Shown piece after piece: positions 506 to 17,290 of a stretch of DNA of 24,000 nucleotides. Positions within the stretch are counted from its first letter, which is position 1, and every line of letters starts with the position of its first letter. The DNA comes from Zhenhengia yiwuensis. GTDB lineage: Bacteria > Bacillota > Clostridia > Lachnospirales > Cellulosilyticaceae. The position numbers and the translations under genes are program-made. The stretch is from positions 62,401 through 86,400 of the forward strand of contig NZ_JACRSY010000017.1 in NCBI RefSeq assembly GCF_014384995.1. Direction: 5' to 3'. The notes under the pieces were generated by a model. The model worked only from the letters and a program-made list of their open reading frames with translations. It ran no database searches and was not told where the DNA came from.

Positions 506-889
506 ATGGCATTCGGTGATAGATTAAAATCACTACGATTAGAAAAGGGTATCTCCCAAAGAGAGCTAGGGGATTTAATTGGTATCTCCGATAGGGTTGT
601 GGGATATTATGAAGCAAATGATAGGTTTCCCAAAGATGAGTTAATATTAAAAAAGATTGCTGATTATTTTAATGTTTCAATGGATGATTTATTAGATAGA
701 GATAATAATGTAAAAAAATTACCTTATGAAAAATTTATGGATACAGTAAAAGTACATTTTATGGGGGCTTCACCTGAAGATCAGGCAGCTATTTTTAATG
801 ATATAACAGAAATATATTTTGAGAGTAAGCAAATTAATAAAGAGAAATTTAATCCTTATAAGAATAAAGATAATAAGAATAACCTCTAA
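506..889 (+). CDS. XRE-family HTH transcriptional regulator, ImmR/CI-like repressor candidate, 127 aa
   Basis: N-terminal HTH_3 pattern LKSLRLEKGISQRELGDLIGISDRVVGYYEANDRFPKDE...IADYFNVSMDDLL. Followed on the same strand by an ImmA-like peptidase. Confidence 0.85.
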   Translation: MAFGDRLKSLRLEKGISQRELGDLIGISDRVVGYYEANDRFPKDELILKKIADYFNVSMDDLLDRDNNVKKLPYEKFMDTVKVHFMGASPEDQAAIFNDITEIYFESKQINKEKFNPYKNKDNKNNL

Positions 890-1056
890 ATACATACTTC
901 AAATACATTTTCCTATTCATTTAAAAGATTAAATAGCATAGAACAATCCAAACTTACACCAGTTCACCAATGAAATATACATAGTTCATAAAAGGAACAT
1001 GTCTCACATTATATGTGATGGAAGTATGATACTGATCTACAGGGGGAATTTTCTAA

Positions 1057-1503
1057 ATGAATATAGCATTACGTGTAAAAAATTTAATTAAACGACATGA
1101 GACACGCGACCCATTTAGAATTGCAAAGGATTTAGGGATTATTATCAAATACAGGCCTTATACAGAAACTAAAGGCTATTTTTTGAAAGTAAATACCAAC
1201 AAGTTTATTATAATCAATTCAAACTTAAGTGATTTAGAAAAACTGTTGGTATGCAGCCACGAGCTTGGACATGCTATTTTACATTCCAATAATAAATATG
1301 CTCTAACCTATGAAAAGGGGCTAGCAATGGTTCAGGATTTTACACTATTTCCTGTTAACTCAATTTATGAAAATCAAGCTAATAAATTTGCTGCCGAGCT
1401 TCTTATGGATTCAGAGTTTTTTGACAGTATATTTTCCAAACATACTGACTTAGATCCCAAGATTTATGAAGCTTTAATGAGATTAAGACATACTAGAATT
1501 TAA
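1057..1503 (+). CDS. ImmA/IrrE-family zinc metallopeptidase, 148 aa
   Basis: HExxH motif in CSHELGHAILH and downstream ENQANKFAAELLM, the typical ImmA/IrrE signature. RBS AGGGGGA. Located downstream of an XRE repressor. Confidence 0.8.
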   Translation: MNIALRVKNLIKRHETRDPFRIAKDLGIIIKYRPYTETKGYFLKVNTNKFIIINSNLSDLEKLLVCSHELGHAILHSNNKYALTYEKGLAMVQDFTLFPVNSIYENQANKFAAELLMDSEFFDSIFSKHTDLDPKIYEALMRLRHTRI

Positions 1504-1518
1504 TTACATAACAGAAAA

Positions 1519-1568
1519 GCAGGTCATTACTAACAGTTTATACTATCCGTTGCTATGACCTGCTTTTT
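1519..1568. terminator. Rho-independent terminator, probably bidirectional
   Basis: GCAGGTCAT (1519-1527) pairs with ATGACCTGC (1555-1563), followed by TTTTT on the plus strand. The minus-strand reading gives the same stem followed by TTTTCTGTT. It sits between convergent reading frames. Confidence 0.6.
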
Positions 1569-1570
1569 AT

Positions 1571-1887
1571 TTACTTTTTATTATTCTTAAATACATTTAT
1601 TAAACTTATATTGTTCTGCTTTATGTTAACTCTCTCATGCGTCTCATACTTATCTTCTGCTATTGTACGCTGAAGATGTGGTTTGTTATCAAAAGTAGCA
1701 AAAATAAAGATAGTATATAGGAATAACCAGGCAATACCATTTTCTAACGTACTTATTGGATTTATTCTAATAGCTATTACAAAAAATGCTGTTACCCCAC
1801 AAAAAGCTAATATATTAGCCTTTATCCATGCACCTACTATAAATAATAGCTCTTTTATACATTAACAACTCTAATAAATGTTCTCAT
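1571..1887 (-). pseudogene. Possible frameshifted small membrane-protein gene
   Basis: RBS GGGTGAT plus ATG at 1887 opens a 10-codon frame (MRTFIRVVNV*). A ~90-codon hydrophobic frame without an ATG (..LFIVGAWIKANILAFCGVTAFFVIAI..FLYTIFIFATF..KNNKK*) continues in another frame and ends at 1571, next to the shared terminator. Confidence 0.3.
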
Positions 1888-1950
1888 ATCAATCACCCAT
1901 TTAAGTATTTTACTAAACTGCTCCTCTAATGGATAATTTTATACATTTCC

Positions 1951-2283
1951 TTATAGCTTACCCTTATTGATCTTCAACAATAACTTAGCTGCTTCATGTA
2001 GCTCTGGGTTAACCCCTTCTACTTTTTTTGCTTTAATCACATCCGATATGTCCGTAGATTTATACGCCTCACCATTCTTCCTACAACCTGTAGCATTTAC
2101 TTCTTTTAAAACAGCTTCTACCTTGCCTATTTGTAAATACCTTTTGCAGATAAGCTCTTCTAATCCTGTTTCTGGTGTGGCTCCTAATACTGCAAGGCCT
2201 TGTGCCTTTTCTAACTTTTCCAGTATAACTTGTACTTTTTCCAGCTCTTTCTGGTATTTTATGATTGCTTCTTTAATATTCAT
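1951..2283 (-). CDS. Hypothetical protein, 110 aa, helical and charged
   Basis: Strong RBS GGGGAGGAG 8 nt before the ATG, its own promoter, and a clean ORF. I recognised no motif. Confidence 0.7.
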   Translation of the reverse strand: MNIKEAIIKYQKELEKVQVILEKLEKAQGLAVLGATPETGLEELICKRYLQIGKVEAVLKEVNATGCRKNGEAYKSTDISDVIKAKKVEGVNPELHEAAKLLLKINKGKL

Positions 2284-2354: not shown

Positions 2355-2399
2355 TAAGAGTATTCGGATAAATACATACTCGATTATGTGTAAATACAA

Positions 2400-2450
2400 A
2401 GAACCCACTTATCTCCCATACCTTTTGGGTATTTTTAATAAGTAGGTTCT
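2400..2450 (-). terminator. Long hairpin, candidate terminator ending the long minus-strand cargo operon
   Basis: AGAACCCACTTAT (2400-2412) pairs with ATAAGTAGGTTCT (2438-2450) with one mismatch, and an inner ATACC/GGTAT stem is present. T-rich tract on the minus-strand 3' side (TTTGTATTT). Confidence 0.45.
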
Positions 2451-2622
2451 CATCACGTAAAACTTTACCGTTGCATATAGTGATCAGTTATATGAAACTT
2501 ACCGCTTAATTGGCTGATTCATAACATGAGCTTAAATTGTGTTTAAATTGTCACGTACCAGGTATGGCTACAAAAGTGTTAAATTTTGTTTGCTATTCTT
2601 CTACACCTATGTTTTCTAAATT

Positions 2623-3267
2623 TTATGCACCTATAGTTTCTACCCATAGCATTGCTGAAAATAAACTATGGATTAGTTCATAGAATATTTCTGACTCTGC
2701 TTCTTCTTCAAATAAGTCTGCTCTTCTTATTTTAGAAATAACAATCCAATCCTTTTTGTTATAGTTGATAACTTCCTTACCATAATGTTCTATAAATGAT
2801 TGTTGTCTATTTAATTTTTCTTCTTTATTTCCTTTTAATCCTTTATATAATCTACAAATGGCCCCAGCACCAGCCATATTAGATATATTTTTAAGAAGAT
2901 AAATATACTCCCCATCTTTTATTGCTTGAGATAACTCCAATTGAAAACAAAAGTCATGAAACTTAGTTGAACCTAATGTAATATGTGCATCTCGTAATCG
3001 AGTACTATATCCCCATTCGCCTACATTTAAAAATGCATTATATCCTTTTCCATTATAACTCAACACCTCAAAGCCATCTTCATCATTCAACAAATAAATT
3101 TCTTTCATCCTATATGGTTCATGGTGTTCAGTGTCAACTGTCTCACTTACATTACAAGCGAAAAATTTGAATTTGCCTATTTCTAGTTCAATATTTCTAC
3201 CTAGGGGACAAGTTTCTAATATTTCTACAATTCTATTTGCTTCTTTTTGTTCGATAAGCTCTAGCAT
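2623..3267 (-). CDS. Hypothetical protein, 214 aa (cargo gene 3)
   Basis: RBS AAGGAGA before the ATG at 3267. Preceded by hairpin-repeat copy A. No recognisable catalytic motif. Confidence 0.75.
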   Translation of the reverse strand: MLELIEQKEANRIVEILETCPLGRNIELEIGKFKFFACNVSETVDTEHHEPYRMKEIYLLNDEDGFEVLSYNGKGYNAFLNVGEWGYSTRLRDAHITLGSTKFHDFCFQLELSQAIKDGEYIYLLKNISNMAGAGAICRLYKGLKGNKEEKLNRQQSFIEHYGKEVINYNKKDWIVISKIRRADLFEEEAESEIFYELIHSLFSAMLWVETIGA

Positions 3268-3300
3268 ACGTAAATCTCCTTTTTCTATATTCTTTAAGGG

Positions 3301-3366
3301 AAATAACCCAACACAACCACACCGTCTAACTTCATTCTAGTTATCTACGTGGTCATGTCAGGCTTA
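3301..3366 (-). repeat. Cassette-junction hairpin repeat, copy A (most degenerate)
   Basis: AAATAACCCAACACAACCACACCGTCTAACTTCATTCTAGTTATCTACGTGGTCATGTCAGGCTTA aligns nearly base-for-base with 4758-4836 and 6685-6764. Confidence 0.75.
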
Positions 3367-3497
3367 TATCTCTATCCCCTTTAATACTTCTTTCAAGTTA
3401 ATCATTTCACCCTTACTAAGTGTAACACACTTACCCATCTTGGCATGTTCTGGCGCCTATTCATGTATATCGTACTTTAGTTCCTTATCATTCTACG
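3364..3497 (-). pseudogene. Decayed 3' fragment of a PC4/YdbC-like small gene
   Basis: The minus-strand frame reads NDKELKYDIHE*APEHAKMGKCVTLSKGEMINLKEVLKGIEI* with in-frame stops. Roughly 140 nt is homologous to 5048-5185. The KYDIREW..KM.KG..LS pattern recalls bacterial PC4-like (YdbC) proteins. Confidence 0.5.
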
Positions 3498-3505
3498 AAA
3501 TAAGA

Positions 3506-4720
3506 TTAGTTAGTTCTTCTAGCTCTCTTAGCTGCTTTATATCTTTCTTCATCATAGAGATTAAAAATAAGATGATAAACTGTCATTAACTCACCATTTT
3601 CAGGCATTATATGTTTACTTACAAAAACCTCCTGATTGTCTATTTCTGTTCTACTAATATATACTGGTGCAAAATCTTCACTCTTATCTTTTAGAATAGT
3701 AAGTTTTTCCATAATATAATCACTTGCGTTCCTATATGGTTTATTACGATTAATAGAAAGGGTTATCCCAAATTTAAAATTAGGATTTAGATACCCCATA
3801 AGCTGATAATATTGGTCTACGAATTTTTCTATGTACTTATTTTCAATAACACAAAAGTCTTCCAATTGACCTTCATACATCCTATAGATATACAAATCTG
3901 TTTCTCCCAGTTTCTTAGCTGAACGCCCCATTGTAAACTCTCGGGCAATTTGCATATTAAACTTTAGATTTAATGGTCTTATTATCGTGTCATGAAATGT
4001 AGCAGTAACTTGAACCTCATCATATTGTTGGAAATCTACTACTCTCTTTTGGAACTGCTTAAGTGCTTCTAAAATTTCTTCTACTATTCCTTGAGCCTCA
4101 TTAATTGGGTGGTAAGCTTTAAAATGTTGTAGGTATATTTCTCTAATATCACACTCCATTAAATCAAAAAAATCTTCTAGATTATCATAATGGTAAACCA
4201 TTTTAGCCAATAGAGGGTTTTCTATATAAAGAAGTGTCATTCTATTAACTTCATCTGGTAGAAAATCTAAATCTTCAAATATTATTCCTACATATTCATT
4301 GAAATCTTCTATTGTATTAATCACATATGCCTTTGTTTGATCCTCACAAGAATTTGATATATTTATGCTATTCCTCAACTCATCACTTAACGGGAAACAT
4401 ATCAACTCTTCATCTTCATCATGAGCTTCAATCCACCACCTTAAAATATTAAATAGTAAAAATTCATAGTTTGGGTTGATGTAATTTCTAACTACTCTCG
4501 AGTTAATAAGCTCATATAATTCATAAATACTATTTCTACACTTATCAGGTTCTCTTTCATATCTATCTCTTGTAAAAAGGAACGCTATTTCAAAATATGG
4601 ATCATCTTGCATAATGTCAATAAGTACTTCTATAACCCCTCTTATATTATCATTAATAAATTCCATTATCTGGTTACCTATTTTTTTGTCCTCTTCATTC
4701 CACAACTGTACATTAATCAT
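3506..4720 (-). CDS. Hypothetical protein, 404 aa, acidic helical N-terminal region plus C-terminal PD-(D/E)xK-like nuclease signature (cargo gene 2)
   Basis: I prefer the internal ATG at 4720 (MINVQLW..) because it has RBS GAGGAGA. The track ORF start at 4774 lies inside the hairpin repeat. C-terminal motifs are GETDLYIY (D), CVIENKY (ExK) and QLMGY (QxxxY). Confidence 0.8.
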   Translation of the reverse strand: MINVQLWNEEDKKIGNQIMEFINDNIRGVIEVLIDIMQDDPYFEIAFLFTRDRYEREPDKCRNSIYELYELINSRVVRNYINPNYEFLLFNILRWWIEAHDEDEELICFPLSDELRNSINISNSCEDQTKAYVINTIEDFNEYVGIIFEDLDFLPDEVNRMTLLYIENPLLAKMVYHYDNLEDFFDLMECDIREIYLQHFKAYHPINEAQGIVEEILEALKQFQKRVVDFQQYDEVQVTATFHDTIIRPLNLKFNMQIAREFTMGRSAKKLGETDLYIYRMYEGQLEDFCVIENKYIEKFVDQYYQLMGYLNPNFKFGITLSINRNKPYRNASDYIMEKLTILKDKSEDFAPVYISRTEIDNQEVFVSKHIMPENGELMTVYHLIFNLYDEERYKAAKRARRTN

Positions 4721-4757
4721 AAGTTTTATCTCCTCGTAAAAATAATTGGATAAACAT

Positions 4758-4836
4758 AAAAAAGCCCAACACAAGCATACCTTCTAACTTCATTATAGTT
4801 ATCTACGTAGTCATGTTGGGCTTCTTGTTATAAATT
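4758..4836 (-). repeat. Cassette-junction hairpin repeat, copy B
   Basis: Outer stem AAGCCCAACA (4762-4771) / TGTTGGGCTT (4814-4823), followed by TTTTTT on the minus strand. Homology with copy C continues 9 nt into the upstream CDS (stop plus N-L codons). Confidence 0.8.
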
Positions 4837-5019
4837 TTTCAATATAAGTAGCATTATAGATAGTACAGTTATACCACCCCATGTCATTGATAAGCTTATT
4901 ATACCTACCTTTTTAAATCTTTTATATGATACTGAATCTTTTCCTGATGTTTCTGCTTCTAACTTTAAAGACGTTAGATACAAAACAGTTCCTATCAATG
5001 CAAAAACTATTATATTCAT
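4828..5019 (-). CDS. Small membrane protein, 63 aa, two predicted TM helices
   Basis: Strong RBS GAGGAGGA. Two hydrophobic stretches (IIVFALIGTVLYL and GGITVLSIMLLIL) are separated by a charged loop. Confidence 0.65.
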   Translation of the reverse strand: MNIIVFALIGTVLYLTSLKLEAETSGKDSVSYKRFKKVGIISLSMTWGGITVLSIMLLILKNL

Positions 5020-5064
5020 GTAACTATTCCTCCTCTTTCTTCTATTTCTATATCTCTATTCCAT

Positions 5065-5250
5065 TTAAGACATCTTTAATCTCATTACTTCATTTTTACT
5101 AAGTCTAACACCCCTGGCCATCTTGGCATGTTCTGGTACCCATTCGCGTATATCGTACTTAAGCTCTTTATCATTCACACTAAGTGCATGGATCAGAGTT
5201 ATGTCTCTATTTAACATTAGATGCGGATTCTTTATTATCTTTTCGCCCAT
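5065..5250 (-). pseudogene. Truncated PC4/YdbC-like gene remnant (61-codon ORF)
   Basis: ..SVNDKELKYDIREWVPEHAKMARGVRLSKNEVMRLK.. is homologous to fragment 3364-3497. Its 5' part overlaps the end of the 487-aa CDS by 44 nt. Compared with copy A, its C-terminus looks shifted by 1 nt (out-of-frame KDVLNGIEI* against copy A's KEVLKGIEI*). Confidence 0.45.
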
Positions 5251-6670
5251 CTATTAGTACTATTGCATTGTTTTCGTCAATCTTTAAATCATGTAAAATC
5301 TTATTCACACGCGCTAACTCTGAATCAGTAAAATATAATATAACTTTAATTGTTTTAGCTGTTCCTCCATTTGCCTTATTGTAAACATCCAGTTGCTTTG
5401 CTAAGTTTTGTTTCAATTTACTATTACTTGCAAGTTTAAATTCTATTAAGGTTTGATCCTTTTTGCCTTGTGACGCTTTAAAATCAACAGGTCCTCTTCC
5501 GTTATTAACCTCAGCATTCATATCAGAATCAGAACTAAACCATGTAAGCTTGTATAGAATTTGAAAATCATGTTCTCGCTTAATAGGCTGTCCATCTATA
5601 TAAAATATTTTATATCCATCCATATCTTCAATAACCCTTTTAAGATACATCACACGCTCTAGTGCTTCCTCAAAGCTATCCTGTCTTACATCATAAAATG
5701 GCGTTTGAGTTGCCATCATTTCTACAAATATCTTATAGTTATTCACCAGAAGCTCATTACAAAAACTAACCTTTTCATTGCTAATATTTGATGCCATTTC
5801 TTTTTCTCGCTCTTTTTCACGAATATAATAGTCAATAATTTCTGGCAACTGCTGTACTAATCTCTGATATACCTCTTGGCGCTCCTTTTTCTTCATGCCT
5901 TTTTTTAATTCCTGTAACAAATAATTATTGATTTGTCCTCGGAGAGCAATATTATCAATTGACTCTACCAAAAGTTCAATTTTACTATACATGTCATTAC
6001 TATTTATAAATGTATCGTCTCTCGTCAACAGATCCTTTGGGGTTAATATAACATAACTATTTTTAAACTTAGGCAGTGTGTAAATTTCACCCTCCCAAAC
6101 CTCAAAATCGTAATTAAATCTTGACTTACTTACATTAAATTGTCCTAACAAGTTTTTATCAATATGTTTTAACGCAAACTCCTGCGTATATCTCAGCAAA
6201 AATGCTTTAATGAGATTAGTTGTAAAGTCACTGATGTTATCTCGTCCTACTCCTGAACCAATCAGACAAAGTTTTTCTAAATGGCTCTCTTCTGTAATGT
6301 TTTCTTCTCCAAATTTCCCAAATAACGATACTAAATTATTATCTAATGATTTTGCAAATTTCATTCCTAGGCCCGAGCCTTTGTTCCCTACCTCCGAAAA
6401 ACCAAGCCAATTTTGCTCCACCTCTTTAAAGGTATACCATGCCCTTAACAATCCTTCCGTAACTATCCCCTTACTTGATTTATCTTTAAGAAATATTAAA
6501 TACCTTATTATTTCTTTATGTAACTGCTTATATTCATTTTTCTTACTGTTAAAAAGTAAAAACGGATCAATAAAGAGTGGCAAATCTGCAACTAAGGAAA
6601 TATTGAAGGCACCGTACTCTTCAAGTGCTTGCTCTCTGACATTAAAAAAATCACAAAAATAAGTATTCAT
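5207..6670 (-). CDS. Hypothetical protein, 487 aa, with C-terminal PD-(D/E)xK (RecB/Cas4-like) nuclease signature (cargo gene 1)
   Basis: RBS AGGAAGGGA directly after hairpin-repeat copy C. C-terminal motifs are REHDFQILY, GRGPVDFKAS (D), LIEFKLAS (ExK) and QLDVY (QxxxY). I did not recognise the N-terminal ~380 aa. Confidence 0.85.
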   Translation of the reverse strand: MNTYFCDFFNVREQALEEYGAFNISLVADLPLFIDPFLLFNSKKNEYKQLHKEIIRYLIFLKDKSSKGIVTEGLLRAWYTFKEVEQNWLGFSEVGNKGSGLGMKFAKSLDNNLVSLFGKFGEENITEESHLEKLCLIGSGVGRDNISDFTTNLIKAFLLRYTQEFALKHIDKNLLGQFNVSKSRFNYDFEVWEGEIYTLPKFKNSYVILTPKDLLTRDDTFINSNDMYSKIELLVESIDNIALRGQINNYLLQELKKGMKKKERQEVYQRLVQQLPEIIDYYIREKEREKEMASNISNEKVSFCNELLVNNYKIFVEMMATQTPFYDVRQDSFEEALERVMYLKRVIEDMDGYKIFYIDGQPIKREHDFQILYKLTWFSSDSDMNAEVNNGRGPVDFKASQGKKDQTLIEFKLASNSKLKQNLAKQLDVYNKANGGTAKTIKVILYFTDSELARVNKILHDLKIDENNAIVLIDGRKDNKESASNVK

Positions 6671-6684
6671 AAATATCCCTTCCT

Positions 6685-6764
6685 AAAATAAGCCCAGCAC
6701 AACCACACCTTCAAACTTCATTCTAGTTATCTACGTGGTCATGTTGGGCTTCTTGTTATAAATT
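6685..6764 (-). repeat. Cassette-junction hairpin repeat, copy C
   Basis: Outer stem AAGCCCAGCA (6690-6699) / TGTTGGGCTT (6742-6751), extendable to ~17 bp imperfect (..ACCAC/GTGGT..). The repeat overlaps the last 3 codons of the DUF45 gene. Confidence 0.8.
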
Positions 6765-7469
6765 CATATTAATTCCGTTATTTTTTAACCATTCTTTTCG
6801 CACTTCATAGTCTGGCATAATACTTCCTAGTAAATCCCAGAAGGCTTTTGAATGATCTTTATGATACATGTGGCAGAGCTCATGGACAATGATGTAGTCT
6901 AGTGCATGTGCTTTTGCCATGACACAGCGCCAGTTGAATAAGAGCTCATTGTTAATTGTGCAGCTTCCCCAGCGCTTTTTCTGTTCTTTGATTTTCACTG
7001 TCGTAGGCTTTTTGTCAAAGAAGGCTTGGTAATATTTGAGCCGTTCTTCAATTTGTTCTTTGGTTTTCGCTCTGTACCAATCTTCCATAGTTGCTTTTAT
7101 GAGGAGTTCATCTTTTACTGGTACAGTGACATAGAATTTGCCTCTATAAAGCTTTGTGGATGCTTTTCCTACTGTTTCATCGACTACGATTTGCATGGCA
7201 TAGTTACGCCCTAAGTATACAAAGGCTTCACCATTAACGAATTCTCTAGTAATCTTTTGAGCCTGCATATTTCTAAATGTAAACATCTTTTGTATAAGCC
7301 AACTAGCTTTTTGTTTAACCTTCTGTTTAATGACTTCTTCGGTTGTTCCTATAGGTGCTGTTACTACAATTTTACTTGGTGGCTCTATAGCCATTTCCAT
7401 TGTTTTTCTTTCAGAGTAGGTCACTTCAAAAGTTAAGGCTGTTGTCCCATATTGTAGTGTCAATTCCAT
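6756..7469 (-). CDS. DUF45/YgjP-like (M48/WLM-type) zinc metallohydrolase, 237 aa
   Basis: HExxH in IIVHELCHMYHKDH near the C-terminus. The size and the position just downstream of hsdR are typical of YgjP-like proteins linked to Type I R-M operons. Confidence 0.85.
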   Translation of the reverse strand: MELTLQYGTTALTFEVTYSERKTMEMAIEPPSKIVVTAPIGTTEEVIKQKVKQKASWLIQKMFTFRNMQAQKITREFVNGEAFVYLGRNYAMQIVVDETVGKASTKLYRGKFYVTVPVKDELLIKATMEDWYRAKTKEQIEERLKYYQAFFDKKPTTVKIKEQKKRWGSCTINNELLFNWRCVMAKAHALDYIIVHELCHMYHKDHSKAFWDLLGSIMPDYEVRKEWLKNNGINMNL

Positions 7470-7479
7470 CTTATCGCCT

Positions 7480-10400
7480 CTATTCTAATTCTTTGAAGTG
7501 GGTTTTAGCCAGGTTAAGAAGTGGCTGAATCATCTGGTTAATAATCGGTAACTTCTTGATTGTCTTCATATGATTTTTAATAAGCATCATCTTGATTGCT
7601 CTTTCAATGTCATTTGCTTTTGTAGGATTTGTTACCCAATCAATAAGGTAATGATCTTTAACTACTTGTTTGACATCTTTAGCAATACTCTTTGATAACT
7701 CAATGATATCATTGGAGATATAAACTTCTCCCGAATCCTTAACAACCCCTTCTACACTCTCTTCTTCTAGCAAATACTTTTTCACTACTTCAAAGAATGC
7801 AAACTCTTTTTCATCCAGTCCTAGTGTCTCTGAATGTGACTTTGTACCTTCCATGACTTCTTTTTCAATGAATTCTTCTAACTGTTTCTTACGTTTTACC
7901 CAGTCATGTTCTGTATCATTTAAGAGTTTTTGAAGTTTCTCTAGCAAACTGGTATAAAACACAGGGTTATCATCCATTCTTACTGCAATAGCATGTTTTA
8001 CAGCATGTTCCATAGCTGATGCTTGAGATTCATCTGAATGCATGGTATTAATCTTCATTTTAAAGTCATCTTCAAAGAGAGTAATTGGTGCAATCCACTG
8101 TTGCACACCTAAAGACTTCAGATGTTTTTCAATAATCTCCTTAACCTTTTCTCCACAATCACTAATATCTAAGTTCTGTTCTGGTGTATACTTTGCTTTT
8201 GCAGCCACACGAATATAACTTAGCCATTTCACATCATTGAGAATATCTGCCCCTACATGTGCTGGTAGAAGTGCTTCAACTATACCTTGAAAGGTTTTAT
8301 AACCTATTTCAAACTCAGCTCGCTTATCTTCTGGCTCAATCACTTTGATAAGTTCATCTAAGTTGTTAGGATCTACACCTCTAAACATATTCATGACTGC
8401 TTCACGATAAGAAAGCATTTCTTTGTACAGGTCATCTATAGATTGCATTGGTTTTCCAAGTTCTTCTTTGTCAAAGATGGCTAAAGCTTCTTCCAGATAG
8501 TTGGAAATACCGTAGTAATCTACGACATAGCCACATTGCTTGATGATTTTGTTCTTCTCTATGGTCCCATTTTCTAATTGCTTTTGGATTTCTTGCGTAT
8601 TGGTACGGTTTACCCTTGCTATAGCTTGTAGTAAGTTATGTTCTTTGAGTGGTCTATCTAAATACATGACTTGTTCAATAGGTGCATCGAATCCTGTAAG
8701 TAGCATATCTTTTACAATTAAAAAACATAACTTATCTTTGTCTATTGGCTGTTTGAAATGTTTAATGATTTCTTCTTGTTCAGCCTTTGTGGTAAAGTGT
8801 TCCTTCAAGTGTGGAGGATCATTGTTATCTCCTGAGAAGATGACTCTTACTTCTAGCTCTTCACCAATAATGTCTTTCATATGTTTCTTAAGAGCTCTTT
8901 CATAACGTACACAAGCTTCTCTACTAATACAAACTATTTGAGCCTTAAAGCCATTAGGCATAATGTTATCTCTATAGTGTACTAACATATCTTTAGCAAT
9001 ATCTTCGATGCGGACTTCTGCTTCTGCAATAGCTTTGTTGGTTGCATACTTCTGTTTAATGGCTTCTTTTTCTTCATCTGTTCTATCACTGAACATCTGA
9101 TCAAAGAGTTCATCTAAGCTTTTACCTTCTAGTTGAAGGGCTGGCTTTCTACCTTCATATACAATTTTAACTGTTGCCCCATCTTGTACAGCTTCTTCAA
9201 TACCATATTTATCGATGTAGCCACCAAATGTTCTAGGTGTAGACTTATCTTCTTTATCAATAGGTGTTCCTGTAAAACCTACAAATACTGCATTAGGTAG
9301 TGCGACTCTCATATTGCCTGCTGTATCTTTATATTGGCTACGGTGTGCTTCATCTGTTAGAACAATGACATTCGGTGTAGTCGTTAATACCTCATAAGGT
9401 TTCACAAACTTCTTCTTAACCTTCTTGCCATTTTCAATGACTTCACGTTCTTCTGTCTCACTTTCAAACTTCTGAATAGTCGTCATGATAATTTGAGCTT
9501 TAGCAGCTGATAAAAGCTCTTTCATCTTCACAATTTTATCAGCACGAACTGGCTCTGTTATTTTACAGAGGTTCTTGTAGAAGGTTGCAAAGATTTGTTT
9601 ATCGAGGTCAATACGGTCTGTTACAACCACTATGGTTGAATCCATAAGCCCTTCCATACGTCTAAGCTTTCTTGCTAGGAATACCATTGTCAGTGATTTA
9701 CCACTTCCTTGTGTATGCCATACGACCCCACCACGTCCAATAGAGTTTTTCCCTTTTACCATACGGTCTATTGCCTTATTAACAGCTCTAAACTGCTGGT
9801 AGCGACAGACCTTCTTAATAATACGACCATCATCAGGCTCAAAAAGTAGGAAGTTACGCATCAAGTCAATCAGGTTATGCTTTTCTAGCATGCCTTGAAT
9901 AAAGATATTTTGAGGACTGTTCTCTACATCTTCAATATCTTTCTTTTTGAATGGATAAGGATCTTTCCACTCTACATAGTGATTGTATTGTGAGCTAATA
10001 GTCCCGACATAAGCATGGTATTTATTTAAAATACCTGTAAAGAAGTTGGTATAAAATAGATGTGGTGCACCTTCTCCAAGTGCTTCATCTCGAATATTCA
10101 TATAACGGCAAAGCTGTTCATAACCTTGCTTCTTCCCTACACTGACCTTATTTTGTTTTTCTAAGAAAGGTGATTTACACTCTAAGACTACCACGGGTAT
10201 ACCATTAACAAATACCACAATATCCGGGAAGATACTTTTACCACTCAGTGTCTGAACTTCAAATTGACGCACGACTAGGAAATCATTGTTCAGTGGTTCA
10301 TCCCAGTCAATAAAATGTACTGTATGTTTTTTCTTTAAGCCACTACCATCTAAGTCTTGTTCTACTGTATAAGTAAGGTTCACCATGTCATCATAAAGCT

Positions 10401-10671
10401 TCTCATTAATCTCAAGTAGGCTACTACCCAAATGGTCTGCTGTTTGCAGGTAACGGATTGTTCTCTGTAAATTTCCCTGGCTTATCCAAGGGTTTAAACG
10501 TCGTAAAGCCACTTCTAAATGCTTACTAAGTACCACTTCTCTTAAGGATTCACGTTCCCCTTGTTCAGGTCTTAGCTCTTTACCATGAATATAGGTATAT
10601 CCTAGTATCTCTTTCATATAGTCTACAGCTGGTGCTTCAACTAAGGTTTCTTCATTTCCCAAATAGGACAT
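7480..10671 (-). CDS. hsdR: Type I restriction endonuclease subunit R
   Basis: N-terminal nuclease motif PDIVVFVNGIPVVVLECK, helicase Walker A HTQGSGKSLTM, DEAH box VLTDEAHRSQ, and ~1060 aa length. I prefer the start at 10671 (MSYLGNEE) with RBS GGGGGTGA over the upstream ATG at 10689. Confidence 0.95.
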   Translation of the reverse strand: MSYLGNEETLVEAPAVDYMKEILGYTYIHGKELRPEQGERESLREVVLSKHLEVALRRLNPWISQGNLQRTIRYLQTADHLGSSLLEINEKLYDDMVNLTYTVEQDLDGSGLKKKHTVHFIDWDEPLNNDFLVVRQFEVQTLSGKSIFPDIVVFVNGIPVVVLECKSPFLEKQNKVSVGKKQGYEQLCRYMNIRDEALGEGAPHLFYTNFFTGILNKYHAYVGTISSQYNHYVEWKDPYPFKKKDIEDVENSPQNIFIQGMLEKHNLIDLMRNFLLFEPDDGRIIKKVCRYQQFRAVNKAIDRMVKGKNSIGRGGVVWHTQGSGKSLTMVFLARKLRRMEGLMDSTIVVVTDRIDLDKQIFATFYKNLCKITEPVRADKIVKMKELLSAAKAQIIMTTIQKFESETEEREVIENGKKVKKKFVKPYEVLTTTPNVIVLTDEAHRSQYKDTAGNMRVALPNAVFVGFTGTPIDKEDKSTPRTFGGYIDKYGIEEAVQDGATVKIVYEGRKPALQLEGKSLDELFDQMFSDRTDEEKEAIKQKYATNKAIAEAEVRIEDIAKDMLVHYRDNIMPNGFKAQIVCISREACVRYERALKKHMKDIIGEELEVRVIFSGDNNDPPHLKEHFTTKAEQEEIIKHFKQPIDKDKLCFLIVKDMLLTGFDAPIEQVMYLDRPLKEHNLLQAIARVNRTNTQEIQKQLENGTIEKNKIIKQCGYVVDYYGISNYLEEALAIFDKEELGKPMQSIDDLYKEMLSYREAVMNMFRGVDPNNLDELIKVIEPEDKRAEFEIGYKTFQGIVEALLPAHVGADILNDVKWLSYIRVAAKAKYTPEQNLDISDCGEKVKEIIEKHLKSLGVQQWIAPITLFEDDFKMKINTMHSDESQASAMEHAVKHAIAVRMDDNPVFYTSLLEKLQKLLNDTEHDWVKRKKQLEEFIEKEVMEGTKSHSETLGLDEKEFAFFEVVKKYLLEEESVEGVVKDSGEVYISNDIIELSKSIAKDVKQVVKDHYLIDWVTNPTKANDIERAIKMMLIKNHMKTIKKLPIINQMIQPLLNLAKTHFKELE

Positions 10672-10694
10672 TCTTTCACCCCCATTCAAACTGA

Positions 10695-11936
10695 TTATTT
10701 ATCTGTGGTAACTCTTATCTTTCCTGTTAGAAGTTGTTGCATAAGGCCTTTTTTTAATTCTGTTATTATTTCTTTTTTCTTATAATAACTCTGTAATTTT
10801 TCATCTATCGTATATAAAACATTTACAATTTTTTCTTGTTCTTCTCTAGTTGGTATAAATACTTTAAAGTTTTTAATAATTTCTTGACTAATGTTAGGCT
10901 GTGCTCCCCCAGCGCCTAGCTCAATTAACTTGTCTTTATTAAACTCTAAAGTATAGTACAGATATTCATAATTAACTTTTTCCTCATTACAAATAATACT
11001 ACAACATGCTTGGTTAGTAGTAACTTCTGTTTTATTAATACTTAATTTACCTATTGTTGCACCGTACATAGCTATAATTACTGCATTTACTGGAACTATT
11101 TTTGCAGATGAATTCCTTACGGCCTCTTGTGTTATTTTTTCTTCTGTATCATAAATATATTTATTTGATAGCTCTCCTGTTTTTAGCCATGGAATATTAC
11201 CATTTAAATAATACTCTTTGTTTTTTCTACTAGGTGTTCCCCCACTAGTAGTATTAGCTACTTCTCTAATCAGCTTCACTTCCCACTCTTTAGGAATAAT
11301 ACCTATTTCTGTTTCTTTGAACTCTGTATTCCCTATACCTTTTGTGAGAAGTTGTTGCATCAGACCTTTTTTAAGCTCCTTTGTTTTTTCAATGAGTTGG
11401 TCTACATTGTCAATTTGTTCATCTACAGTTGATAGGATATCAGCTATTTTTTGCTGTTCTTGGAGTGGTGGGTAATATAATGGTAGGTTTTTGAAAACAT
11501 TGTAACTAATTTGCTTCCCATCTCTTATCCCAATAACAGAACTACTTAAACTATCAATAAACTTCTTACTTTTGAATAAATACTTATAATAATTAGAATG
11601 TATATTTATTTTGTTATTCAATATCGTATACGCTGGACTTACTATTCCCCTTATTCCTGAGTACTCTAATCCCCCCTGAAAAGAACGAAGGCTTATAATA
11701 AAGTTACCTTTTTCAACTAATTTATAGCTTTCAATACTTTTATCTGAAGTTTTAATATCTATACCACACTCATCTCTATACATTGTTCCTCTATCTTGAG
11801 TTACTGCAAGTATAGGTTCTTTGGGGTAACCTTTTAATGCCACATTTTCAAACACTTCTCCTGCTTTCTTTATATCCCACTCATTAGGAATAAGTCCTAA
11901 TTCTGTATTTTTGAAGCCATCCTTTACAGTCTTCAT
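10695..11936 (-). CDS. hsdS: Type I R-M specificity subunit S with two target-recognition domains
   Basis: Two TRDs, each followed by a conserved spacer repeat LKKGLMQQLLT (central and C-terminal), plus central PPLQEQQKIADILS. I prefer the start at 11936 (MKTVKDG) with RBS AGGAGGA. The upstream ATG at 11963 lies inside the hsdM 3' end. Confidence 0.9.
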   Translation of the reverse strand: MKTVKDGFKNTELGLIPNEWDIKKAGEVFENVALKGYPKEPILAVTQDRGTMYRDECGIDIKTSDKSIESYKLVEKGNFIISLRSFQGGLEYSGIRGIVSPAYTILNNKINIHSNYYKYLFKSKKFIDSLSSSVIGIRDGKQISYNVFKNLPLYYPPLQEQQKIADILSTVDEQIDNVDQLIEKTKELKKGLMQQLLTKGIGNTEFKETEIGIIPKEWEVKLIREVANTTSGGTPSRKNKEYYLNGNIPWLKTGELSNKYIYDTEEKITQEAVRNSSAKIVPVNAVIIAMYGATIGKLSINKTEVTTNQACCSIICNEEKVNYEYLYYTLEFNKDKLIELGAGGAQPNISQEIIKNFKVFIPTREEQEKIVNVLYTIDEKLQSYYKKKEIITELKKGLMQQLLTGKIRVTTDK

Positions 11937-11949
11937 ACTTATTCCTCCT

Positions 11950-13467
11950 TTATATAATGTCAAATCCTAATTCCTTAAGGTAGCCATTTAGTCTTTGTTG
12001 TGTATTTTTTTCTCTTTCACTAAGTTGCTTAATTTCTTTAATTACATCATTAATATTTACTTGCTCTTCTTCCTCACTTGTATCAACATAACGCGATATA
12101 TTAAGGTTGTACTCGTTATCTTCTAGCTGTGAAATCGATACTACTTTAGAATATTTATCTATATCTTCATATTTTTCAAAGGTGGATATTATCTTAGCTA
12201 TATCTTCTTCTCGTAATACATTTTTAGTTTTCTCTTTACTAAACTCATTGCTAGCATCTATGAATAAGACTTTTTCTTTACGTTCTATAGGTTTATTCTT
12301 ATTCAGTACGATAATAGCTGCTGGAATGCTTGTGCCATAAAAGACATTTTGTGGAATACCAATAATAGCTTCTACTAGGTCATCTTTTAAGAATCCTGTA
12401 CGGATCTTTGCCTCAGCACCACCTCTAAAGAGTACACCATGAGGTACTACTGTAGCCATTTTACCTTTTGCATTTAGGCTTGTTACCATATGAGATACGA
12501 ATGCCAGATCACCATAGCTTTTTGGTGGAATACCATAAGGGAAGCGGTGAAAGGCATCACTTGCAGCTTCTTCAGCTCCCCAGTTTTTAAGTGAGAATGG
12601 TGGGTTTGCTAATACCTTATCAAAAGCTTTTAGTACACCACCTTCTGTATGCATTGGTGTACGGATCGTATCCCCTTTTTGGATATCCGCACCTTTAGCA
12701 CCATGGAATAGCATATTCATCTTACAAATAGCCCAAGTTGATAGGTTAATCTCTTGACCAAATAGTGAAATATTCTTGTGATTGCCACCATGTTTTTTGA
12801 TGTATTCTAAACTTTGAATAAGCATACCACCAGAACCACATGTTGGGTCATAGATACGGTCGCCCTCTACTGGTTTTAAGATACCTACCATTGTTTTAAC
12901 TACTTCTGTTGGTGTATAGAATTCTCCACCTTTAGCTCCGCCATCATCAGCAAACTTTTTGATTAAATATTGGTAAGCATCACCTAACATATCTTCTGAT
13001 TCTAGGTTACTATTTGCTAGTTTCATGCTGCTAAATAGGATTAACATTTGTGATAGCTTTTTATCCGATACACGTTCCTTGTCATTGTAGTTAGTTGTTG
13101 TAAGTACACCAATAAGCTCACTATTTCTAGGCTCGTCCTCTAGTGCTTTAAACGCCTTGTCTAGTGCTGGTCCAATGTTTAGTGATAAATCCTTTAGCTT
13201 AGCCCATCTAGCCGCTTCTGGTACATAGAAGGTCTCATATAAAGAGGCATCATTAAGTAACTCTGTGATCGTTTCATCATCAAGCCCTTGCTCTTTAAAT
13301 TCGGCTTCGTGCTTTGCTTTTTCTTCATCAAATTCATCATTAAGACGCTTTAAGAAAAGCATACCAAAGATATAGTCCTTGTATTGAGCTGCATTAAGCT
13401 CACCTCTTAATATATCTGCACATTCCCATAGCTTTGACTCTAGTTCTTGTAGTGTTAGTAGTACCAT
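11950..13467 (-). CDS. hsdM: Type I R-M N6-adenine DNA methyltransferase subunit M
   Basis: HsdM N-terminal pattern [29 protein letters not shown] motif [11 protein letters not shown], catalytic motif IV NPPF. RBS TTGGAGG. A possible extended -10 (TGATAAAAT) lies at 13512..13504. Confidence 0.95.
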
Positions 13468-15844: not shown

Positions 15845-15861
15845 GCACTCCCCCTAATCTT

Positions 15862-16306: not shown

Positions 16307-17290
16307 TTATTCATGCCTTCTTTCTGCATCCTTTGCACTATAATGAGTATCTTTTCTTTTTTTCTCTCCATTCACTACTTCAATATTACTCCTGCGTTTC
16401 ATCTCTTCTTGCACCTGTTCAAATACCTCAATAGGAATGATAGGTTCATGTGCCTCTTCCATAATAAATTGGTCTTGCTGCCCACGGTTGACTTTTTGTC
16501 TATTATTTGGAAACCCTGTAGTATATGTTTTACCTACCCGTACATTACCCATGTATTTTTCGTTCGTAAGCATGGTTTGAATGGTGCGTTTAGACCATCT
16601 CTCTTTGCCTGTAGGCGAATTGATATTCTTATCAGCTAACTCTTCCATAATCATATCTACACTATACCCACTTAGGTATAACTCAAAGATTTGCCTTACT
16701 ACAATCGCTTGCTCTTCATAAATCATTAGCTCTCCATCTTGGTTTTTTTTATATCCAAAGCATTTGCGTGTATAAAGCTTTGATCTTCCAGATTTAAATC
16801 CACTTTTAAATCCCCATTTGATCGCTTCACTTAATCCCTCACTTTCTGCTTGTGCGAATGCAGCGTGCACTGACATTATGAGCTCTGTTTCAGCATCACT
16901 TGTACTAATATTTTCCTGCTCAAAGCGTACCTCAACACCTAACCATTTTAGTTTAGTAACTGTCTCTAGTAAATCAACAGTATTTCTGCTAAATCGACTA
17001 ATTGACTTGACCAAAATGATATCAAATAGATTCTCATAACTATCAAGCATCATCTTATGAAATCCTGGACGAAAAGTATTCCTTCCGGTATCTTGATCCT
17101 CATAGACTCCATACAAAGTCCACTGAGAGTTGCATTTAACGACTTGCTCCAGACCATACTTCTGGGCTTTTAAACTTTCTTCTTGTATATCGCTTAGTGT
17201 ACTTACACGGCAGTAGATTGCCACTCTTTTATCATTTCTTACTGTGGGTGGCCTAACCTCTACATTACGTCTTCTATTGTTTTCCATCAT
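16307..17290 (-). CDS. Serine recombinase (resolvase catalytic domain plus recombinase domain), 327 aa, lacking the zinc-ribbon/coiled-coil domain of large serine recombinases
   Basis: Catalytic-serine motif VAIYCRVSTLSD, SISRFSRN motif, and recombinase-domain patterns (YTRKCFGYKK, SPTGKERWSKRTIQTMLTNEKYMG, HEPIIPIEVFEQVQ). The ORF stops at ..THYSAKDAERRHE*, about where the Zn-ribbon domain normally starts. Confidence 0.9.
   Translation of the reverse strand: MMENNRRRNVEVRPPTVRNDKRVAIYCRVSTLSDIQEESLKAQKYGLEQVVKCNSQWTLYGVYEDQDTGRNTFRPGFHKMMLDSYENLFDIILVKSISRFSRNTVDLLETVTKLKWLGVEVRFEQENISTSDAETELIMSVHAAFAQAESEGLSEAIKWGFKSGFKSGRSKLYTRKCFGYKKNQDGELMIYEEQAIVVRQIFELYLSGYSVDMIMEELADKNINSPTGKERWSKRTIQTMLTNEKYMGNVRVGKTYTTGFPNNRQKVNRGQQDQFIMEEAHEPIIPIEVFEQVQEEMKRRSNIEVVNGEKKRKDTHYSAKDAERRHE

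Follow-up and report, generated by a model that had tools for sequence, protein, structure and literature searches.

A homologous intercistronic hairpin in an integrase-proximal defence hotspot of Zhenhengia yiwuensis prophages

Genes and repeats at the locus

The window, i.e., the whole 24,000-nt stretch of Zhenhengia yiwuensis DNA that was analyzed, contains a co-directional array in which a Type I restriction-modification (R-M) operon is followed by three cargo genes separated by repeats (Table 1). Pairwise comparison of the 487-, 404-, and 214-aa proteins found no significant similarity, in agreement with the initial annotation of this DNA, which had called them mutually unrelated. Judged by its family matches, the 487-aa protein is a candidate defence protein, and family searches with the 404-aa and 214-aa proteins returned no matches. 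Two cargo genes had also been described as followed by fragments of one small gene. These fragments are PC4/YdbC-like and share 80% identity over 129 nt (5176-5049 vs. 3493-3365).

Table 1. Features of the window, with positions counted from its first nucleotide.
Feature	Position	Strand	Remarks
Conserved prophage framework	506..2283	.	110-aa gene, ImmA-like peptidase, HTH repressor
HTH repressor	506-889	+	Conserved framework
ImmA-like peptidase	1057-1503	+	Conserved framework
110-aa gene	1951-2283	-	Conserved framework; identical protein beside varied cargo
Second, unrelated long hairpin and U-tract	2398..2460	-	Right edge of variable region, just upstream of 110-aa gene
Cargo gene 3, 214 aa	2623..3267	-	No known family (family searches)
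Hairpin copy A	3292..3378	-	Flanked by ydbC-like remnant and 214-aa gene
Second ydbC-like 3' remnant	3365..3508	-	In-frame stops; stop codon of 404-aa gene at its start
Cargo gene 2, 404 aa	3506..4720	-	No known family; module present or absent among related prophages
Hairpin copy B	4750..4836	-	Flanked by 63-aa membrane gene and 404-aa gene
63-aa predicted membrane protein	4828..5019	-	ORF with GGAGG RBS
PC4/YdbC-like gene, 3'-half remnant	5049..5176	-	Within 61-aa ORF 5065-5250; Pfam PC4 5.7e-4
Cargo gene 1, 487 aa	5207..6670	-	PADLOC PDC-M36A 1.2e-19; DUF8370/DUF8371 (precomputed Pfam); phrog_30194
Hairpin copy C	6678..6764	-	Between DUF45/YgjP-like gene and 487-aa gene
YgjP-like (DUF45) metallopeptidase gene	6756..7469	-	End of Type I R-M operon; Pfam PF01863, 1.3e-57
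Type I R-M operon	7480..13467	-	First hotspot slot
hsdR	7480-10689	-	Type I R-M operon
hsdS	10695-11963	-	Type I R-M operon
hsdM	11950-13467	-	Type I R-M operon
Serine recombinase (Resolvase and Recombinase domains)	16307..17290	-	Putative prophage integrase; hotspot left edge
rumA 3' end and terminator (att region)	17741..17917	-	Second copy at 14757-14932

The three reported copies of one repeat were recovered by a repeat search of the window as a single three-copy family, an element of ~70-80 nt with 76-91% ungapped identity (aligned 79-nt units at 3300-3378, 4758-4836, and 6686-6764), and local blastn gave 86-91% pairwise identity across 65-81 nt. All three copies lie in the sense orientation of the array. 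A 31-nt core has three exact matches in the window and none in 100 dinucleotide-preserving shuffles, even with three mismatches allowed. Copy C scores 92.8 bits against the covariance model. Copies B and C have in common the 16 nt upstream of the stem, AATTTATAACAAGA, and because of this the unrelated DUF45 and 63-aa genes both end in N-L-stop, as had been noticed earlier. The gene for the 63-aa protein sits between ydbC remnant and hairpin only in module 1; at copies A and K, the remnant abuts the hairpin directly. Two details required correction. A U-tract had been assigned to copies B and C alone, but a U-rich tail is found in all three, and a ribosome-binding site (RBS) placed 15-40 nt past each copy holds for B (~26 nt from the stem) and A (~23 nt) but not for C (~6 nt).

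Prophage setting and distribution of the hairpin

The array corresponds to the accessory (defence) hotspot, next to the integrase, in a family of Z. yiwuensis (Lachnospiraceae) prophages that are inserted at the rumA 3' end; exact protein matches identified Z. yiwuensis as the host. The position of the serine recombinase is likewise filled in three relatives (L001, L025, and L075), and the element is present as viral contigs in IMG/VR. At the other end, identical 110-aa, ImmA-like, and repressor proteins adjoin at least 13 different cargo sets, among them Type I, III, and IIG R-M, AbiH, SMODS, McrBC, PD-T4-3, and DUF3800. Homology with other cargo types begins at 2466-2523, and in L032 the hairpin found here at this right edge is duplicated with an Endonuclease_NS_2 module in between. 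The initial annotation had proposed a hotspot of swapped, probably defence cassettes behind hsdR-DUF45. The hotspot and its varying content of accessory, largely defence modules are supported, but the slot is defined by the integrase and the immunity module and is not a property of hsdR-DUF45.

Among the prophages compared, we found 13 distinct copies of the hairpin in 11 contexts with seven cargo types. In every cargo type, one copy closely follows a restriction system unrelated to those of the other types, either directly or after a small DUF45 gene or ydbC remnant, and the neighbours on both sides are otherwise unrelated. There are one to three copies per prophage, always in one orientation, and all 13 are intergenic within the hotspot; the loci searched had none elsewhere, neither in the prophage replication regions nor in that part of the window which belongs to the host. 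The covariance model had no match in ~113 kb of DNA from the host flanks and from other mobile elements, so that in the DNA sampled the repeat does not behave as a generic genome-wide REP-like element. Scans with W/D-type cores, which for GTDB and JGI did not extend to the E/G/I type and which included no complete Zhenhengia genome, gave no match in GTDB species representatives (exact matches), IMG/VR, or JGI metagenomes. The gene content between repeats is not a fixed set; it differs among relatives, and the 404-aa module is missing in two of them (L020 and L021).

Structure, origin, and recombination of the hairpin

Each of copies A-C folds into a long hairpin, as had been claimed, at -25 to -32 kcal/mol (z -4.0 to -4.8), with none of 200 shuffles as stable; the sense strand of copy C folds at -25.9 kcal/mol (z -4.2). 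The predicted structure spans 63-66 nt and has a lower stem of 16-19 bp with tandem U.G/G.U pairs, an asymmetric internal loop, and an apical stem of 5-6 bp, followed by a U-tract. In the alignment, 91.9% of cells are paired, compared with 34-47% when partners are slid, and compensatory double changes occur at three pairs. The covariation score of 0.172 (0.138 in shuffles) was reached by none of 500 shuffles, with the signal carried by only two or three diverged lineages in an alignment fitted to the model. The architecture is preserved in the diverged copies F and K, although their apical stems differ, and copies D and E tolerate loop indels. For all 13 copies, the sense fold is more stable than the antisense fold.

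These predictions suggest that the repeat acts at the RNA level and, on the transcribed strand, terminates or attenuates transcription between cistrons. Features of rho-independent terminators are present, namely, a hairpin with a G+C-rich base (GCCC/GGGC), an immediate U-tract (6-8 T in the 10-nt tail of all copies), and an upstream stop codon ~8-130 nt before the hairpin (about 8-10 nt in B, C, and D). The size is atypical, since a span of 63-66 nt with an apical sub-hairpin exceeds the usual stem of up to ~12-15 bp with a short loop, and a simple consensus terminator scan did not report the hairpin. Also, the RBS of the next gene lies only 3-10 nt past the U-tract in copies C, F, and G. This leaves no room for a separate promoter and therefore implies partial termination or a transcription start within the hairpin, which counts against the terminator view. 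The earlier contrast between recombination junctions and ordinary terminators appears to be a false choice, as these borders have the anatomy of a transcribed-strand terminator/attenuator, one that probably goes back to the final part of a PC4/YdbC-like gene.

The ydbC remnants stand before copies A, B, F, G, and K, and L085 carries an intact 75-aa PC4 gene with the hairpin directly after it. These observations suggest an origin of the hairpin in a small, since decayed PC4/YdbC-like phage gene, of which it would have formed the 3' end.

Comparisons of related prophages support the gain, loss, and exchange of modules at the hairpin or beside it. L020 and L021, which come from two metagenome samples and two assemblers, are 99.2-99.8% identical to the window but lack exactly the 404-aa module and have one chimeric repeat (63aa-chimera-214 vs. 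63aa-B-404-ydbC'-A-214 in the window). The left part of the chimera is B-type and the right part A-type, with the switch within ACATGAC in the 5' arm. Copy B is itself a mosaic; its leftmost 27 nt are exactly those of copy C, and its private substitutions all lie to the right of ACATGAC. Homologous recombination between copies accounts for the way in which the 404-aa module was lost or gained and one chimera remained, and likewise for private features that copies in one genome have in common, such as the N-L-stop ends. Furthermore, L082 and L085 have 2 kb in common that end at most 2 nt from the end of the hairpin model. Right breakpoints fall at the U-tract, and left breakpoints fall at 0, -16, about -45, and about -130 nt. 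This scatter over ~130 nt favours homologous and illegitimate recombination and disfavours a fixed site. The swapping is most likely due to ordinary homologous recombination and not to an integron-like enzyme. Only one clean recombinant was found, however, and its crossover took place in a 7-nt identity block although blocks of 12 and 13 nt were on offer, which counts against homology. A targeted mechanism could likewise produce the sharp right breakpoints, which recur in several independent contexts.

As a whole, we consider it probable, with considerable room for doubt, that a ydbC-derived terminator/attenuator hairpin marks the module borders and that its copies recombine by homology. The history would have started with the 3' end of a small PC4/YdbC-like gene in the accessory region that the serine integrase and the immunity module enclose. 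Cargo upstream would have been replaced repeatedly, with joins at various points within or just past the ydbC gene, and incoming genes would have been placed immediately after the U-tract; by these two processes, the ydbC remnant plus hairpin would be left as the only sequence common to otherwise unrelated defence modules. In a genome with several copies, these would then recombine by homology through host or phage recombination functions.

Alternative explanations and known systems

The adjacency of hairpin and RBS, as in copy C, where no separate promoter fits, also suits two other RNA-level readings. The hairpin in the copies of the window may additionally be a sigma-A promoter with its -35 in the 5' arm and its -10 in the apical loop, such that read-through ends at the hairpin and a new transcript for the next cargo gene starts inside it. 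Copy A has CTGACA-16 nt-TAGAAT (10 of 12 matches), its two private changes improve the -35 and retain wobble pairs, and the -10 reads TATAAT, a perfect match, in copy B and TAGAAT in C, H, and J. The promoter-early stem-loops (PeSLs) of T4-like phages (Arbiol et al., 2010, PMC2839356; Comeau et al., 2014, PMC4122927) have exactly such an arrangement (PMC2839356). However, the -10-like hexamer is split by one-nucleotide insertions in D, E, G, and I and missing in F and K, the -35 matches at only three of six positions in most copies, and promoter-like matches in this AT-rich region (53) do not exceed the 56 expected from shuffles; we regard this composite role as rather unlikely. It is unlikely as well that the hairpin serves in RNA processing or stability as a substrate of RNase III or a similar enzyme, which would cut the cargo cistrons apart so that the upstream mRNA keeps a hairpin that protects its 3' end. 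The early-mRNA processing sites of T7 and SP82 are a precedent of this type. The predicted near-coaxial duplex of ~22 bp with an asymmetric internal loop, the sense-specific structure, the conserved tandem G.U pairs, and the location between co-directional cistrons with an adjacent RBS that requires read-through all fit such a substrate, but the U-tract conserved in every copy is explained by termination and not by cleavage.

At the DNA level, an isolated homology island amid unrelated flanks in many contexts, with sharp right breakpoints, may instead point to an integron-like or other hairpin-recognizing site at which a dedicated recombinase excises and inserts cassettes. The stem ends fit the attC R''/R' consensus (RYYYAAC...GTTRRRY) in B, D, E, F, G, and J, an agreement noticed post hoc with an estimated chance of ~2% for one hairpin family, and, with the site read in inverted orientation, the AA^C position falls within the crossover interval ACATGAC. 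Against this, Pfam scans of the ORFs in the window found neither IntI nor a tyrosine recombinase but only the serine integrase, which has its own att region, and no fetched hotspot of the family encodes a Phage_integrase domain. The initial annotation was thus correct that no integron integrase is present, but the window is not free of recombinases. Its analogy to attC-bounded cassettes fails, since the predicted stems run unbroken for 16-19 bp, with neither extrahelical bases nor an unpaired central spacer, and the crossover is in the 5' arm, wrong for the canonical orientation, rather than at G^TT of R' at the ORF-distal end. The boxes of A (GCCTGAC), C (GCTGGGC), and K (AAT/ATT) are off consensus with the AAC/GTT triplet broken, and copy I (R'' GTCCAAC) departs in the RYYY part with AAC/GTT kept. 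Gene remnants litter the region, the left breakpoints are spread, and the G.U pairs favour RNA over DNA structure, and a site-specific system is very improbable. If the hairpin nevertheless were a dedicated recombination site, read as folded single-stranded or cruciform DNA by a phage or host enzyme, which we hold to be very doubtful, the integrase-proximal region would be a defence-gene cassette platform and a Firmicute functional analogue of the integron; modules would travel as circles with one hairpin each, and the U-tract breakpoints and attC-like stem ends would be footprints of the reaction. A REP/MITE-like element that inserts itself into intergenic sites is scarcely credible. The inverted-repeat-like arms, the discrete unit of ~66-80 nt, and the unrelated flanks resemble one, but the few co-oriented copies are confined to the hotspot and had no counterpart in the other DNA scanned, they have no target-site duplications, and no empty site with both flanks joined was found. 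Moreover, the hairpin is continuous with the ydbC remnant and therefore shares descent with its flank.

Compared with known systems, the hairpin array resembles integron attC/CALIN arrays in its co-directional, mostly promoterless cargo ORFs parted by imperfect palindromes that are similar within an array, and, judged post hoc, in the stem ends of most copies, which fit RYYYAAC/GTTRRRY. It differs in the recombinase and structural features given above and in its variable left borders with gene remnants. Hardly any integrons are known from Firmicutes. Intercistronic REP/hairpin stabilizers and the RNase III sites of T7 and SP82 likewise place repeated hairpins of one orientation between the cistrons of a transcript, but REPs occur genome-wide, the RNase III sites lack a conserved U-tract, and neither has a link to gene-content variation. 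Like phage morons and prophage defence hotspots, the locus holds accessory and defence genes between integrase and immunity module, hypervariable between conserved flanks. Comparable hotspots are those of P2/P4 and the integrase-repressor slot of lactococcal, streptococcal, and mycobacterial temperate phages. Unlike in known prophage hotspots, one homologous hairpin recurs here at internal borders across cargo types. Small units set apart by terminators, here predicted, are likewise a feature of hotspot islands subdivided in this way (bioRxiv 10.1101/2024.10.15.618418).

The PeSL cassettes are the closest known analogue. PeSLs consist of a strong sigma-70 early promoter and a short G/C stem-loop, number about 50 per lytic T4-type genome in Gram-negative hosts, and have themselves been likened to integrons (PMC2839356, PMC4122927). 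In common with them, the hairpin is an intergenic motif confined to a hyperplastic, accessory-gene-rich region (13 of 13 copies), forms homology islands between unrelated genes, and has a stem-loop with G-T pairs and a predicted terminator or attenuator role. Also, a gene between two copies in one phage corresponds to a single chimeric copy in a close relative, as seen between the window and L020/L021. In contrast to PeSLs, no promoter is conserved across copies, since promoter-like -35/-10 elements occur only in A, B, C, H, and J and are broken up or missing in D, E, F, G, I, and K. Furthermore, the copies form one homologous family with a much longer hairpin at one to three copies per genome, they reside in the integrase-proximal defence hotspot of a temperate Lachnospiraceae phage, and the hairpin probably goes back to a single decayed gene, as its terminator.

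Prophage setting and variable cargo

The array of the three hairpin copies (A, B, and C; Table) sits within a prophage or phage-like element. Exact protein matches of the host DUF434 protein and the 110-aa protein assign it to Zhenhengia yiwuensis (Lachnospiraceae). Right of the 110-aa gene lie genes for ImmA, an HTH repressor, a Cro-like HTH protein, a DUF2800/PDDEXK nuclease, and a sigma factor, and further right those for a ssDNA-binding protein, PolA, AntA, PemK, and a D5-type primase. Relatives of the element are listed as viral contigs in IMG/VR. The left edge has a serine recombinase and a duplicated rumA 3′ end with a terminator, the latter being the att region. Otherwise near-identical prophages have wholly different cargo in the stretch from the recombinase to the 110-aa gene. 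We found three different type I, two type III or type III-like, type IIG, and MvaI/BcnI restriction-modification (R-M) systems, as well as McrBC, AbiH, SMODS, DUF3800, PD-T4-3 with a methyl-directed nuclease, Endonuclease_NS_2, and more. This variable region is a classical integrase-immunity accessory slot, here serving as a defense hotspot. The initial annotation located the array downstream of a type I R-M operon; the array does follow this operon, but its setting is the prophage slot and is not R-M-specific.

The two copies of the rumA 3′ end (HVETIAYLVKE-stop) with terminator are 76-89% identical and bracket a module composed of the recombinase, a 118-aa ORF, and a 288-aa ORF; prophages of the L025 type have the same layout. 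The duplication may have arisen by tandem accretion, or the bracketed genes may be a small integrative module of their own next to the prophage. The recombinase is just 327 aa (Resolvase and Recombinase domains), and a zinc ribbon and a long coiled coil, normally C-terminal parts of a large serine recombinase, are encoded by the separate 288-aa ORF downstream. The integrase may be split or rearranged, and the same ORF set was found in other samples (L001 and L075). The Zhenhengia rumA 3′ end is an integration hotspot for several kinds of elements (host rumA region, loci L071-L080). Depending on the strain, it is occupied by tyrosine-integrase prophages, integrase remnants, or the serine-recombinase prophage, and in some strains by an element that carries genes for Rep_trans and for SpaA-type surface proteins. 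Near the att/recombinase region lies a third family of repeated hairpins (TTAGACTACTTAT...AAGTAGTCTAA), which occurs again in another cargo type (L026).

Table. Positions and neighbors of the hairpin copies and other features. L-numbers are loci or contigs fetched for comparison; ydbC remnants are decayed 3′ parts of a small PC4/YdbC-like gene.
Feature	Locus	Position	Left neighbor	Right neighbor
Copy C	window	6686-6764	DUF45	487 aa
Copy B	window	4758-4836	63 aa	404 aa
Copy A	window	3300-3378	ydbC remnant	214 aa
Copy H (chimera)	L020/L021		63 aa	214 aa
Copy D	L025 type		hsdR of 1117 aa	403 aa
Copy E	L049/L081		type III-like res	trypsin-like pseudogene
Copy F	L049/L081		ydbC remnant	GreA/B-like gene
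Copy G	L069		hsdR of 1028 aa + ydbC remnant	188 aa
Copy I	L059 type		1102-aa helicase-nuclease	187 aa
Copy J	L085		type IIG enzyme	HNH protein
Copy F2	L085		intact PC4 gene	GreA/B-like gene
Copy K	L082		type IIG enzyme + ydbC remnant	144 aa
404-aa module	window	4757-3366		
Second hairpin	window	2398-2460		
Second hairpin, duplicated	L032	4080-4134, 5982-6035		
Third hairpin family	window	14655-14692, ~17409-17465		
Third hairpin family	L026	182-211, 2135-2164		
rumA 3′ ends + terminator	window	14757-14932, 17741-17917		
Serine recombinase	window	16307-17290		
Recombinase and 288-aa ORF	window	14978-17290		
hsdS direct repeats, pair 1	window	10725-10772, 11343-11390		
hsdS direct repeats, pair 2	window	11274-11321, 11868-11915		
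Frameshifted 487-aa gene	L002	~7540		
Frameshifted trypsin-like gene	L049	3290-4144		
Intact trypsin-like gene	L085	12478-13599		
Similar-arm hairpin	L053	1014-1057		
Similar-arm hairpin	L058	2709-2752		

Distribution of the hairpin

A repeat search of the window recovered one 79-nt family in three copies (76-91% identical). The window contains three matches to the 31-nt core and 100 shuffles contain none, even with three mismatches permitted in the shuffles, and a long hairpin is predicted for each copy (-25 to -32 kcal/mol, z about -4 to -5). The repeats reported by the initial annotation are real. The minus strand carries every gene from hsdM through the 110-aa gene. The sense order is hsdM, hsdS, hsdR, DUF45/YgjP (PF01863, 1.3e-57), copy C, the 487-aa gene, a 61-aa PC4-like ORF, a 63-aa membrane ORF, copy B, the 404-aa gene, a PC4-like fragment, copy A, and the 214-aa gene. 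As claimed earlier, the three cargo proteins (487, 404, and 214 aa) have no mutual relationship, and two unrelated upstream ORFs both end in N-L-stop. The shared ends follow from 16 nt that B and C have in common left of the stem. We found nothing relevant in Rfam (whole window at the gathering threshold; 2400-7000 at E<=10), no match by megablast of the whole window against plasmids and phages, and none by distant blastn of 2400-7500 against phages. In one metagenome, the 487-aa gene (DUF8370/DUF8371, PDC-M36A-like) is cut to 333 aa by a 1-nt insertion. Within hsdS, two pairs of direct repeats (~80% identical, 594-618 nt apart) are the usual conserved regions around the two target-recognition domains and could serve in specificity shuffling.

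A covariance model built from the first copies was searched over all fetched loci and identified 13 distinct copies in 11 contexts and seven cargo types. The neighbors of these copies are unrelated to each other; the 403/404-aa and 187/188-aa neighbors, considered as possible relatives, are unrelated proteins of similar length. In all seven cargo types, one copy lies just downstream of a restriction gene, either directly or after a small DUF45 gene or ydbC remnant. No copies were found in the prophage replication regions, the 113 kb of host flank and other rumA-integrated elements, or the host part of the window, and six other cargo types (L026, L029, L032, L061/L088, L084/L087, and L086) lack the hairpin. 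Because the copies in the DNA searched are confined to the hotspot and spread over seven cargo types, the hairpin is an island of homology inside it, and in this DNA it is neither a genome-wide REP-like repeat nor tied to a single R-M system.

The exact cores ACGTAGATAACTANAATGAAGTT and CATGACNACGTAGATAACTANAA, patterns that do not cover the E, G, and I cores with their 1-nt loop insertion, had no matches in GTDB representatives, IMG/VR, or JGI metagenomes. An arm-based gapped pattern found only the L049 contig in IMG/VR, plus chance matches in unrelated high-GC DNA. An unrelated pair of IMG/VR viral contigs (L053 and L058) has a hairpin with arms identical to the family (ACATGACCAC...GTGGTTGTGTTG) and another apical part; this hairpin was judged a chance pattern match (covariance-model score 15 bits, E 0.74).

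Module exchange, probable origin, and predicted RNA structure

Two metagenome contigs, L020 and L021, match both flanks of the 404-aa module in the window at 99.2-99.8% identity and lack exactly that module. They were assembled from two samples by two assemblers, of which one ran at k = 141. Repeat-induced misassembly is unlikely because the longest exact A-B match is far below the assembly k-mers and the contigs have their own SNPs. Their single repeat is B-type as far as ...GCCCAACATGAC and A-type thereafter. In the window, the left 27 nt of B are the same as in C, the B-private substitutions are all right of the same ACATGAC interval, and the private changes of A are left of it. One reciprocal exchange explains the chimeric repeat, the B mosaic, and the private changes of A; it could have been a deletion or the insertion of a circle with one hairpin, and the chimera is the only clean recombinant found (n = 1). 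Private features are also common to copies within one genome (ACAAGAAGCCC...GGGCTT in B and C; GAAGAGCC in E and F). We read them as probable gene conversion between same-genome copies, which would account for the shared N-L-stop ends. A trypsin-like peptidase gene is frameshifted upstream of the ydbC remnant and copy F in L049/L081, and an intact 373-aa trypsin-like gene lies downstream of F2, the GreA/B-like gene, and a 246-aa gene in L085. If these are homologous, module order would be permuted relative to the hairpin, which excision and reinsertion of circles would produce. In all cargo types, the variable region ends on the right at a second long hairpin of unrelated sequence (GAGAACCTACTTATT...AAGTGGGTTCT and a U-tract). 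In L032 this second hairpin is duplicated on either side of an Endonuclease_NS_2 module, which is the same pattern of hairpins at module borders in a different sequence family.

The hairpin directly follows an intact 75-aa PC4/YdbC-like gene (PF02229, phrog_26484) in L085. Remnants of the ydbC 3′ part, of varied lengths and with stop codons, precede A, F, G, and K, and also B with the 63-aa gene intervening. The stop codon of the 404-aa gene is within ydbC-derived sequence, and at copy I ~45 nt homologous to the 3′ end of the hsdR next to D persist as non-coding DNA (p<0.003). Since remnant lengths vary and the joins at I and the 404-aa gene fall near the hairpin, the left breakpoints are scattered from 0 to ~130 nt upstream. 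The right breakpoints are sharp: the 2 kb common to L082 and L085 stops <=2 nt from the model end, just past the U-tract, and similarity ends ~10-15 nt beyond the stem in all contexts. Left-flank homology hints that the last codons of DUF45 may derive from the ydbC 3′ end (C-F p = 0.013, C-E p = 0.11, both uncorrected).

Several features speak for an RNA structure on the transcribed strand. In 13/13 copies the sense strand folds more stably than its complement. Tandem U.G/G.U pairs occur mid-stem, one-sided changes produce wobble pairs, and pairing holds in 91.9% of cells compared with 34-47% in slid controls. Compensatory double changes occur in three pairs, and the covariation score exceeds all 500 shuffles in an alignment that is model-fitted and draws its signal from two or three diverged lineages. 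This covariation was not significant with the first 6-10 copies and is moderate only once F2, J, and K are added. The arrangement of a lower stem, an asymmetric internal loop, and a 5-6-bp apical stem is retained in F and K with different apical sequences, and one-nucleotide indels are located in the apical loop. After every copy comes a U-rich tail in which 6-8 of 10 nt are T. The anatomy is that of an unusually long intrinsic terminator or attenuator on the transcribed strand, with predicted activity, although a simple terminator scan missed it. The next RBS is 3-10 nt past the U-tract in C, F, and G, and therefore the downstream genes would be reached by read-through or by transcription that starts inside the hairpin. 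Promoter-like -35/-10 motifs are present in A, B, C, H, and J. A loop insertion breaks the motif in D, E, G, and I, and F and K have none; an embedded promoter as the conserved function was rejected, as it is not kept across copies.

Prophage defense hotspots are well documented, and the exchange of unrelated systems inside them is mostly put down to unspecified recombination between conserved flanking genes. Here, the conserved internal anchor is a single ~70-nt, putatively regulatory hairpin rather than a gene. It persists while the neighbors on both sides change, and in a natural variant a module has been lost or gained through it. The covariance model is a practical handle for locating hotspot borders and new candidate defense genes, such as those for the 404-, 214-, 403-, 187-, and 188-aa proteins without family assignment, and the hairpin suggests simple experiments on defense-island assembly.

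Comparison with known systems

On balance, we favor the reading that the hairpin is a predicted terminator or attenuator that also serves as a homology anchor. A role in RNase III-type processing or in RNA stability, instead of attenuation, is an unlikely alternative. That the hairpin is itself a site for site-specific recombination is highly improbable. Its stem ends match RYYYAAC/GTTRRRY of integron attC in several copies, but it is not an attC member because IntI is absent, the stem lacks extrahelical bases, the crossover fell in the wrong arm, the left borders are scattered, and the G.U pairs speak for RNA. Overall, the initial observation is confirmed and its interpretation in part supported. 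The proposed swap hotspot holds in that gene content varies and modules are swapped at the repeats (L020/L021 and the differing cargo sets); the attC-like cassette mechanism is not supported. The opposition it drew between recombination junctions and terminators is a false contrast, as the hairpin has terminator/attenuator anatomy and also marks swapped modules.

Unlike REP or MITE elements, the hairpin is not dispersed in the DNA searched and lacks target duplications, and the ydbC remnant runs into it without a break. Its closest analogs are the promoter-early stem-loops (PeSLs) of T4-like phages. These intergenic motifs are conserved, lie in hyperplastic regions, combine a terminator with a promoter, and have stems that contain G-T pairs (PMC2839356, PMC4122927). 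When flanking PeSLs recombine, an ORF is lost or gained, a single chimeric copy remains, and mini-circles can form (PMC2839356, PMC4122927). The location, stem-loop, island-of-homology pattern, and chimeric-copy polymorphism are all found for the hairpin. It differs in having no conserved promoter, in being one long hairpin family probably derived from the terminator of a single gene, and in residing in a defense hotspot of a temperate Firmicute phage. A recent survey reported that terminators split phage hotspot islands into small units and did not describe homologous terminators as exchange points (bioRxiv 10.1101/2024.10.15.618418). The idea of regulatory cassettes as vehicles for modular shuffling came from lytic T4-like phages of Gram-negative hosts, and our findings extend it to defense cargo and to a temperate phage whose host is a Lachnospiraceae species from the human gut.
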